From assembly GCF_024298765.1 (NCBI RefSeq), contig NZ_CP101210.1: 64,000 nt of DNA; one strand, written 5' to 3'. The DNA comes from Escherichia coli (GTDB lineage Bacteria; Pseudomonadota; Gammaproteobacteria; Enterobacterales; Enterobacteriaceae). Position numbers: made by a program. This document shows positions 43,101 to 46,100 of this stretch, in pieces. Numbering within the stretch: the first letter of the stretch is position 1; each line of letters opens with the position of its first letter.

Positions 43101-46100
43101 TCTCGATCTCGCCGCTGATATCGCCATGATGGCGAACTTCTTCAGCTCCGGTCAGGTGTGTACCAACGGCACCCGCGTGTTTATTCCGGCGAAATGCAAA
43201 GCCGCATTTGAACAAAAGATTCTGGCTCGCGTTGAGCGCATTCGCGCGGGCGACGTTTTCGATCCGCAAACTAACTTTGGCCCGCTGGTCAGCTTCCCGC
43301 ATCGCGATAACGTGCTGCGTTACATCGCCAAAGGCAAAGAGGAAGGCGCGCGCGTACTGTGCGGCGGCGATGTACTGAAAGGCGATGGCTTCGATAACGG
43401 CGCATGGGTTGCACCGACCGTGTTCACCGATTGCCGCGACGAAATGACCATCGTGCGCGAAGAGATCTTCGGTCCGGTGATGTCGCTTCTCACTTATGAA
43501 TCTGAGGACGAAGTGATTCGCCGCGCCAATGATACCGACTACGGCCTGGCGGCGGGCATCGTGACGGCGGACCTGAACCGCGCGCATCGCGTCATTCATC
43601 AGCTGGAAGCGGGTATTTGCTGGATCAACACCTGGGGCGAATCCCCTGCAGAGATGCCCGTTGGCGGCTACAAACACTCCGGCATTGGTCGCGAGAACGG
43701 CGTGATGACGCTCCAGAGTTACACCCAGGTGAAGTCCATCCAGGTTGAGATGGCTAAATTCCAGTCCATATTCTAACCAGGAGGTTTATTTGCAATTTGA
43801 CTACATCATTATTGGTGCCGGCTCAGCTGGCAACGTTCTCGCTACCCGTCTGACTGAAGATCCGAACACAACCGTGCTGCTGCTTGAAGCAGGCGGCCCG
43901 GACTATCGCTTTGACTTCCGCACCCAGATGCCCGCCGCGCTGGCGTTCCCGTTACAGGGTAAACGCTATAACTGGGCCTATGAGACGGAACCGGAACCGT
44001 TTATGAACAACCGTCGCATGGAGTGCGGACGCGGTAAGGGGCTTGGCGGGTCATCACTGATCAACGGCATGTGTTACATCCGTGGTAACGCGCTGGATCT
44101 CGATAACTGGGCGAAAGAACCCGGTCTGGAGAACTGGAGCTACCTCGACTGTCTGCCCTACTATCGCAAGGCCGAGACTCGCGATGTGGGCGAGAACGAC
44201 TACCACGGCGGTGATGGCCCGGTGAGCGTCACCACCTCCAAACCCGGCGTCAATCCGCTGTTTGAAGCGATGATTGAAGCGGGCGTGCAGGCGGGCTACC
44301 CGCGCACGGACGATCTCAACGGCTATCAGCAGGAAGGTTTTGGCCCGATGGATCGCACCGTCACGCCGCAGGGCCGTCGCGCCAGCACCGCGCGTGGCTA
44401 TCTCGATCAGGCCAAATCGCGCCCTAACCTGACCATTCGTACTCACGCCATGACCGATCACATCATTTTTGACGGCAAACGCGCGGTGGGCGTCGAGTGG
44501 CTGGAAGGCGACAGCACCATTCCGACCCGCGCGGCGGCGAATAAAGAAGTGCTGTTATGTGCAGGCGCGATTGCTTCACCGCAGATCCTGCAACGCTCCG
44601 GCGTCGGCAACGCTGAACTGCTGGCGGAGTTTGATATTCCGCTGGTGCATGATTTACCCGGCGTCGGCGAAAATCTTCAGGATCACCTGGAGATGTATCT
44701 GCAATATGAGTGCAAAGAACCGGTTTCCCTCTACCCTGCCCTGCAGTGGTGGAATCAGCCGAAAATCGGTGCGGAGTGGCTGTTTGGCGGCACCGGCGTT
44801 GGTGCCAGCAACCACTTTGAAGCAGGCGGATTTATTCGCAGCCGTGAGGAATTTGCGTGGCCGAATATTCAGTACCATTTCCTGCCAGTGGCGATTAACT
44901 ATAACGGCTCGAACGCAGTGAAAGAGCACGGCTTCCAGTGCCACGTCGGATCGATGCGCTCGCCAAGCCGTGGGCATGTGCGGATTAAATCCCGCGACCC
45001 GCACCAGCATCCGGCGATTCTGTTTAACTACATGTCGCACGAGCAGGACTGGCAGGAGTTCCGCGACGCAATTCGCATCACCCGGGAGATCATGCATCAA
45101 CCGGCGCTGGATCAGTATCGTGGCCGCGAAATCAGCCCCGGCGCGGAATGTCAGACGGATGAGCAGCTCGATGAGTTCGTGCGTAACCACGCCGAAACCG
45201 CGTTTCATCCGTGCGGTACCTGCAAAATGGGTTATGACGAGATGGCAGTGGTTGACGCCGAAGGCCGCGTACACAGGCTGGAAGGCCTGCGCGTGGTGGA
45301 TGCGTCAATTATGCCGCAAATTATCACCGGCAATTTGAACGCTACGACGATTATGATTGGCGAGAAAATGGCGGATATGATTCGCGGGCAAGAAGCGTTG
45401 CCGAGGAGCACGGCAAGATATTTTGTGGCAAATGGGATGCCGGTGAGAGCGAAAAAAATGAGTCGTGATGTGAACTAACTCAGGAACCTATCAGATTGAG
45501 AGTTACCGTTCTACTATGAGGACCGAATCCTTATATAAAACACTGAGGTAACTCTCATGCTTCATATCCGCAGTCCCGCCATCAAACTTTAAGCCGATTC
45601 GCTCAATCTGGCGGATGATGGTGCTATGGATACGCTGATAAACCACAAGTGTAATGCCACTCAGCTTAAGAATCACGCAACCAGTGCTCCTGGCTAGGGT
45701 TACTTGTTCTTTCCCACTCCCGGTTAGCAGTGGTCAGCGATCAACTGCGTAAGCCGGGCGTATTTATCCCAAAGCGTGGAGTAATATCAGGTCTACGCTA
45801 AAAAAGTCAATTTATTCGGTTATCATGCACGAAAAGGGGACTTGTGGCGAGTATAAAAATAAGTCAGACCCAAAAACTACGTGGAGCTTTAAACACGGTT
45901 CGTATAATTTATTAGCAGCGATTTATTTTTACCCTTCTTTAATCAGTCATCATGATTAAATATTTTTTATCACAAGATTATCGCTTCTCTAACATTTTAT
46001 TTTTTATTTATTATCAATTGATAAGAAAAAATTGTTAGTACGTTTTTGCAAAAAATTAAAAGTGTTGGAATACACTTAAACAAATGAACAAAAACCAAAC

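Follow-up and report, generated by a model that had tools for sequence, protein, structure and literature searches.

In the 64,000-nucleotide stretch of Escherichia coli DNA analysed here (the window), the choline dehydrogenase gene betA is followed by a recombinase/autotransporter block that is inserted relative to K-12, and the 3′ end of betA raises the question of where this block begins. The encoded protein is six residues longer than that of K-12, and a perfect inverted repeat lies a short distance past the stop codon. In a preliminary description of the locus, these two features were taken together as signs that the left boundary of an acquired block coincides with the betA 3′ end or lies slightly within it. 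Comparison with K-12 and with other E. coli genomes placed the boundary elsewhere (Table 1). The extension, the repeat, and the island are most probably three independent and ordinary features, namely a polymorphic A-run in betA, a hairpin of the core genome 3′ of the betIBA operon, and the nearby PAI-X island. It is near certain that an indel underlies the extension, that the junctions lie at the coordinates given, that the hairpin is conserved, and that the A-run varies independently of the island. Nothing at this locus is new in kind, and the island itself was already known.

Table 1. Coordinates of the features at the betA-ykgH locus, numbered along the window
Feature	Position	Strand	Basis or remark
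betA (choline dehydrogenase), long 562-aa form	43790..45478	+	RefSeq annotation, translation of the 3′ end
A7 homopolymer in betA	45452..45458	+	K-12 alignment (A6 there)
Conserved core hairpin 3′ of betA	45497..45557	+	Folds; arms identical in K-12 and 13 other E. coli
Last 12 nt of core before the island, TGCTTCATATCC	45558..45569	+	K-12 alignment, ends of blastn blocks
ATATCC, left copy	45564-45569	+	K-12 alignment
PAI-X island, 5815 bp, between betA and ykgH, absent from K-12	45570..51384	+	blastn, annotation
Left arm, AT-rich (25-45% GC), non-coding, 5′ of ipbA	45570..46536	.	Identity and GC profiles
ipbA (= fimX = hbiF), tyrosine-type DNA invertase	46641..47204	+	Annotation
Single TGAATCAAAATGTCAG site where the 271-bp hyxS switch is missing	47217..47232	+	Alignment with ST131 and MS7163
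hyxR (LuxR-family regulator)	47263..48057	+	Annotation
hyxA	48211..48972	+	Annotation
hyxB / upaB autotransporter	49014..51305	+	Annotation, PMC3789825
Perfect 13-bp hairpin after hyxB	51344..51372	+	12 nt before the right junction
ATATCC, right copy	51379..51384	+	Core AGTATTCATGATGC... resumes at 51385
ykgH, core gene directly 3′ of betA in K-12	51487..52155	+	Annotations

Position and identity of the island

The whole window was compared by blastn with 50 kb of K-12. The left block of similarity (39501-45569) was found to end at K-12 position 325469 and the right block (51379-59412) to start at K-12 position 325474, which gives a 6-bp overlap in K-12. Pairwise alignment revealed no break between K-12 and the window up to 45569, a stretch that includes the betA stop codon and both arms of the inverted repeat, and the arms are identical in the two genomes. 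The true left boundary lies at 45569/45570, in intergenic DNA, 91 bp past the betA stop and 12 bp past the hairpin formed by the repeat, which is 10 bp outside the interval first flagged. The preliminary description was right that a recombinase/autotransporter block begins nearby, and this block is PAI-X, but its placing of the left boundary at or inside the betA 3′ end did not stand. The alignment with K-12 betA-ykgH that had been proposed as a check returned the same downstream sequence up to the repeat, the A-run apart; K-12 holds the sequences of both the extension and the repeat, and these are unrelated to the junction.

Gene annotation was taken from RefSeq record NZ_CP029164.1 (E. coli strain 104, from chicken), which is 100% identical to the window. 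The genes betI, betB, and betA lie on the plus strand and are followed by ipbA, hyxR, hyxA, hyxB, and ykgH. The block between betA and ykgH is the already known PAI-X (fimX-hyxRAB), which about half of E. coli genomes were reported to carry, 'in several variations', at this conserved site, and which was reported to be exclusive to E. coli (PMC3789825). The region is also listed, as 'ykgH..betA = PAI-X', for APEC/ExPEC strains (PMC12928451), and PMC6083910 likewise covers the island and its site. The left part of the island was found in 1880 of 5426 complete genomes. In its four genes, in their order, and in its site between betA and ykgH, the window copy is the same as PAI-X of the ExPEC strains UTI89, CFT073, and EC958, and from ipbA through hyxB it is 97-100% identical to the ST131 copy. 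It differs from ExPEC PAI-X in being without the 271-bp invertible promoter hyxS between ipbA and hyxR. It also differs from the common form of the island at its left end, where it carries a rare allele of the 1-kb left arm, with only about 80% identity, and the junction reads ATATCC/GCAG, not CAT/CGTG. The GC content is 54-60% in the bet genes and only 25-33% just past the left junction. A Pfam search of the small open reading frames of the left arm gave no match, including for a 57-aa minus-strand frame (45503-45676) that crosses both the junction and the hairpin. The exact coordinates of PAI-X in this genome are now fixed.

Close to the island, nucleotide identity to K-12 is 92-96%, over about 3.5 kb of the left flank and 1.6 kb of the right flank, and further out it is about 99%. 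This pattern fits an old presence/absence polymorphism, the haplotypes of which would have been moved by homologous recombination of the flanks. A microhomology-mediated deletion, with the island ancestral and the empty site derived, would fit the sequences equally well. In such a history, the K-12-like empty sites are deletions, and the block was 'lost elsewhere' rather than 'acquired here'. The empty site consists of left and right core joined at a 2-6-bp microhomology, as an illegitimate deletion would leave, and in O157:H7 the island shows decay, with ipbA, hyxR, and hyxB reduced to pseudogenes. Its reported restriction to E. coli and its presence there in about half of the genomes (PMC3789825) are likewise consistent with ancestry. 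However, the low GC content of the island (25-50%, against 54-60% in the bet genes) and its patchy distribution (1880/5426 genomes) are equally typical of acquired DNA. An ancestral island is a possible, if somewhat doubtful, starting point.

The hairpin downstream of betA

The preliminary description had reported a perfect 11-bp inverted repeat with a 39-bp spacer, which is correct, at a distance of 20 bp from the betA stop, which is in fact 18 nt. The arms, TGAGAGTTACC (45497-45507) and GGTAACTCTCA (45547-45557), are not extendable, the next positions outward (45496 and 45558) being T and T. As RNA, the 11-bp outer stem encloses inner helices that end in a CCGAA loop (as in the window strain) or a CAGAA loop, and together these form a long, interrupted hairpin of about 60 nt. 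An 80-nt stretch at the repeat was found to fold with an energy of -26.2 kcal/mol (z = -4.8), and none of 200 shuffled sequences was as stable; the hairpin folds at -22.6 kcal/mol in K-12 and at -23.0 kcal/mol in the O157 type. The hairpin belongs to the core genome, is present with or without the island, and is single-copy, with a median of one place per genome. As a landmark, it can serve to locate the insertion point of PAI-X.

From its position and by analogy with other operons, the hairpin is rather more probably than not a 3′ stem-loop or terminator of the betIBA transcript. As with the 3′ stem-loops of bacterial operons, it is stable, it lies just past the last stop codon of the operon and before a co-directional gene, ykgH, and it has analogues after betA in related genera. 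A protein scan of other Enterobacterales yielded 80 loci, no Escherichia among them, and a GC-rich inverted repeat was found soon 3′ of the betA stop in most of the 24 species, several with T-runs. The betA hairpin differs from such stem-loops in its length of about 60 nt, in the internal loops that interrupt it beyond the 11-bp outer stem, and in the lack of a U-tract. No U/T run follows the stem; the tail reads UGCUUCAUAUCC, and the 12 nt TGCTTCATATCC contain 5 T but no run. In a terminator scan, the betA hairpin was not called. Without a U-tract and uncalled by the scan, it is therefore no canonical intrinsic terminator. In the betIBA mRNA, the hairpin would form a 3′ stem-loop with one of two roles: it might end the transcript as a weak intrinsic terminator, or stabilise it by blocking exonucleases after Rho-dependent termination. 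It would also insulate the co-directional ykgH. PAI-X, 12 bp 3′ of the hairpin, would then sit between the terminator region of betIBA and the promoter region of ykgH.

A functionless repeat, arising by chance or as a relic palindrome, is an unlikely alternative to a 3′ stem-loop, although several observations agree with it. About 0.76 perfect 11-bp repeats are expected per window by chance, and the betA repeat has no U-tract, no Rfam family, and no mapped 3′ end. A search of 45300-46700 against Rfam 15 (E <= 10) returned nothing over 45497-45557. The one 3′-end supplement that was searched (PMC7815308) has no entry near K-12 position 325,480 on the minus strand; the bet operon was probably silent there, so that this result is uninformative. 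Set against a functionless repeat are the stability of the fold (z = -4.8), the presence of a hairpin at the corresponding place 3′ of betA in most of the other Enterobacterales examined, and the arms, which are unchanged in 15 genomes (the window, K-12, and 13 other E. coli with an intact hairpin) while the interior varies by haplotype. The invariance of the arms is weak evidence of constraint, as it amounts to 22 unchanged bases between haplotypes about 8% apart and has a chance of roughly 0.16. As a class, perfect inverted repeats with arms of 11 bp or more and loops of at most 60 nt are enriched about 9-fold in the window (7 distinct ones, compared with 0.76 ± 0.95 in 100 dinucleotide shuffles), while a single one alone is unsurprising. 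At least three of the other repeats lie shortly 3′ of genes, namely hyxR (48157-48183), hyxB (Table 1), and ykgH (52251-52291).

The 39-bp spacer was also considered as a segment inverted by IpbA. This was rejected, since the spacer is far shorter than the 271-bp hyxS switch, the arms are unlike the hyxS repeat TGATTCAAAATGTCAG, and the hairpin is also found in genomes free of ipbA. A 20-codon minus-strand open reading frame inside the hairpin was rejected as a gene because it is frame-shifted in K-12. Elsewhere in the species, an IS1 element is inserted just 3′ of the betA stop in COL60J, and a deletion bordered by IS1 ends within the hairpin loop in MLI105.

A further reading gives the hairpin a role in the arrival of the island, as the recognition site or target for its insertion, with ATATCC as a target-site duplication from a transposition-like event. 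ATATCC flanks the island on both sides in the window strain, and the probability that six bases match by chance at a set position is about 2e-4; in addition, the junction is merely 12 bp from the hairpin, and IS1 insertions or rearrangements occur near or within the hairpin in two other genomes. However, the left junction in seven other copies of the island (ST131, O157:H7, DETEC-E1070, MS7163, 729_yolk, FDAARGOS_1304, and strain 10) reads ...GCTTCAT followed by [C/A]GTGACAA..., and has only AT in common with the right end, which reads ...CTATAAAT followed by ATCCAGT. Neither terminal inverted repeats nor longer direct repeats joining the ends of the island were found. In the annotation of the island, there is no transposase or integrase, and the sole recombinase is the Fim-type invertase IpbA. 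The 6-bp ATATCC cannot be read as a conserved insertion signature, because the seven other copies are without it, terminal repeats are absent, and no transposase or integrase is annotated. The divergent flanks (about 3.5 kb on the left, 1.6 kb on the right) also speak against a hairpin target, as they fit an old polymorphism spread by homologous recombination. Taken together, these observations make insertion at the hairpin very improbable.

A more elaborate scenario would have the rare variant in the window keep the original signature of insertion. The ATATCC duplication 12 nt past the betIBA hairpin, mirrored by the right-end hairpin at 12 nt, would have been produced by a hairpin-guided mechanism, transposase-independent or now lost, and the left arm would be the ancestral end of the island, derived from an unsampled Escherichia lineage. 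That all of these elements hold jointly is a long shot.

The A-run at the end of betA

The betA gene comprises 1689 nt (562 aa) in the window and 1671 nt (556 aa) in K-12, according to the RefSeq annotations. The preliminary estimate of about six additional residues was accurate, whereas the use of the extension as a sign of the junction was not, since the extension results from an indel in an A-run. In the window, the coding sequence ends in GCG AAA AAA ATG AGT CGT GAT GTG AAC TAA, and both the sequence and its translation place the TAA stop at 45476-45478. In K-12, it ends in GCG AAA AAA TGA, where the run of six A residues brings a TGA (window 45459-45461) into frame, and the protein ends in ...VRAKK. 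Pairwise alignment revealed that the length of the A-run is the sole difference between the window and K-12 at the end of the coding sequence. The 18 nt ATGAGTCGTGATGTGAAC that encode MSRDVN, with the TAA behind them, are also present in K-12, but out of frame after the K-12 stop. BetA is six residues longer in the window because the 1-bp difference between A7 and A6 shifts the frame to MSRDVN-TAA. With A7, the ribosome would read six more codons to the next stop, and with A6 it would meet TGA after ...VRAKK. A fusion of the BetA tail to foreign DNA was rejected, as the same 18 nt stand in the island-free K-12.

The A-run and the island were compared in sampled E. coli, and all four combinations were seen. 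A7 (562 aa) occurs together with the island in strain 104, O157:H7 Z1833, DETEC-E1070, MS7163, 729_yolk, and FDAARGOS_1304, and with an empty site in strain H9. A6 (556 aa) occurs with the island in ST131 CU568-3 and strain 10, and with an empty site in K-12, PEC1013, and N1131. The state of the A-run is thus independent of the island, and the extension of BetA is an A-run polymorphism and no artefact of the junction. A reading in which the island begins at the betA 3′ end or within it, encodes the six residues, and has its junction marked by the repeat retains practically no probability, for although both the extension and the repeat exist and the true boundary is no more than about 100 bp away, the island-free K-12 has the same 18 nt plus TAA and the same repeat arms, H9 combines the long form with an empty site, and ST131 CU568-3 combines the short form with the island.

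Both alleles are common in the species. The betA 3′ end was found in 5187 of 5426 complete genomes, and a 46-mer carrying A6, built so that each 28-nt seed spans the exact A6 run, matched 3965 of the 5426. An exact 63-mer carrying A7, with a long left flank, matched 211 genomes, which is a lower bound for this allele; the genomes without A6 number at most about 1222, so that the A7 total is bracketed between 211 and about 1222. A 47-mer query for A7 matched nothing, not even its source genome, apparently through low-complexity masking by BLAST, and is hence uninformative. About three quarters of E. coli, K-12 among them, carry A6, and A7 is found in the window strain, O157:H7, and many ExPEC.

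In other Enterobacterales, the tail of BetA after the conserved ...PVR was found to range from 1 to 18 residues (PVRR*, PVKRSRA*, PVRRQAAG*, PVRQITQKA*, and others). A difference of six residues therefore appears to be normal and apparently unconstrained variation, and the 556-aa and 562-aa forms of BetA are probably equivalent in function, to judge from the sequences. The polymorphism resembles slipped-strand variation of homopolymers near stop codons, in that one extra A in a run of six to seven moves the stop and adds six residues, and in that both lengths are common in the species. It differs from slipped-strand phase variation, as both alleles give a full-length enzyme and there is no sign of on/off switching, and a run of six to seven is short for high-frequency slippage. 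The A6 and A7 alleles look like stable lineage polymorphisms, and the difference in BetA length between E. coli lineages is a trivial matter of the A-run.

Variation in hyxS and in the left arm

The island in the window is a switch-less variant of PAI-X. The 271-bp hyxS switch, the function of which was described previously (PMC6083910; bioRxiv 10.1101/494401), is cleanly absent from the window strain and from FDAARGOS_1304, and is present in ST131 and MS7163. One TGA[A/T]TCAAAATGTCAG site is left as a scar (Table 1). Genomes with the switch have two directly oriented copies of this 16-mer, the right one of which overlaps, as a near-palindrome, the right inverted repeat. Of the genomes detected by queries specific for the scar junction, 68 have the A variant and 25 the T variant, and these sequences suggest at least two independent excisions of hyxS. 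The switch was possibly excised by the invertase itself. The recurrent, clean loss of hyxS and the existence of two alleles upstream of ipbA that are 20% divergent may be of modest use for studies of FimX/HyxR regulation in ExPEC/APEC.

The left-arm type of the window was found in 86 genomes (at least 95% identity over at least 80% of the length). In the other genomes with a match to the left arm, only part of it is covered, at about 79-80% identity. The divergence of the left arm accounts for most of the differences at the left end of the island, except for four to five consecutive mismatches at the junction.

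The hyxS switch between ipbA and hyxR

The 271-bp hyxS invertible promoter is precisely absent from the window strain, and a single TGAATCAAAATGTCAG site is left in the ipbA-hyxR interval where the switch is missing. Genomes that carry the switch have two directly oriented copies of this 16-mer, the right-hand one of which makes up a near-palindrome together with the right inverted repeat. The scar that marks the loss of hyxS was found with an A variant in 68 genomes and with a T variant in 25 genomes; this distribution suggests that the excision has been recurrent. Recurrent excision was possibly mediated by FimX, the Fim-type invertase encoded by ipbA.

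Features of the window and of betA-island-ykgH loci in other E. coli genomes (L-numbers)
Feature	Location	Remark
ehaA pseudogene	window 34984-38967	between betT and pdeL
Lowered-identity flanks	window 42000-45569 and 51385-53000	compared with K-12
Island left arm	window 45570-46536	upstream of ipbA
Match to IS102 RNA	window 46487-46625	25.8 bits, E = 0.064
Terminator-like hairpin	window 46588-46611	~30 nt 5′ of ipbA start
14-bp inverted repeat	window 46688-46701 and 48133-48146	arms 1431 nt apart
ipbA-hyxR intervals compared	window 47204-47262; L004 8010-8338; L008 4197-4525; L011 4196-4253	
Single 16-mer site	window 47217-47232	
Island right end	window 51344-51384	3′ of hyxB
O157:H7 Z1833 island copy	L005 7498-12191	decaying
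Strain H9, empty site	L010 2756-3094	
COL60J IS1	L095 1545-2330	
MLI105 IS1	L092 3248-4040	

Left arm, repeats and flanks of the island

The left arm of the island, which is non-coding and AT-rich, shares only ~80% identity with the arm of most island-bearing E. coli, whereas the remainder of the island is 97-100% identical. This rare arm type was found in 86 of 5426 genomes. A strong hairpin that resembles a terminator and includes a T-run (AGGCACACTTATCTGGGTGTGCCT + CTTTTTTTT) lies inside a region whose Rfam match, to IS102 RNA, is weak and sub-threshold.

One arm of a perfect 14-bp inverted repeat (TGCAGCCCAGAGCA / TGCTCTGGGCTGCA) lies in the 5′ portion of ipbA, and its partner is located just 3′ of hyxR; the chance expectation for pairs of this kind is ~0.07 per 6 kb. 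At the right end of the island, a perfect 13-bp hairpin precedes a 12-nt stretch whose last six bases are ATATCC. This mirrors the left junction, where 12 nt that also terminate with ATATCC come after the core hairpin (the stem-loop 3′ of betA). The mirrored layout is probably a coincidence.

Identity to K-12 falls to 92-96% over ~3.5 kb to the left and 1.6 kb to the right of the island, compared with ~99% farther away. This drop suggests that old linked haplotypes surround the island presence/absence polymorphism. Elsewhere in the window lies a pseudogene, interrupted by an internal stop, of the autotransporter adhesin ehaA; K-12 has no ehaA-type gene at that position.

Decay, deletion and IS1 insertion in other genomes

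In O157:H7 Z1833, ipbA is frameshifted and truncated, hyxR contains an internal stop, and hyxB is split, with ~1 kb absent; the adjoining ykgH also carries an internal stop. Strain H9 combines an empty island site with the long (562-aa) form of betA, and only small fragments of its ykgH are left, indicating a separate deletion within that gene.

IS1 was found near the core hairpin in two genomes. In COL60J, it is inserted just 3′ of the betA stop, with the duplication GTGATTTG, and in MLI105 it adjoins a deletion of yahE-to-betA, the endpoint of which lies inside the core hairpin loop.
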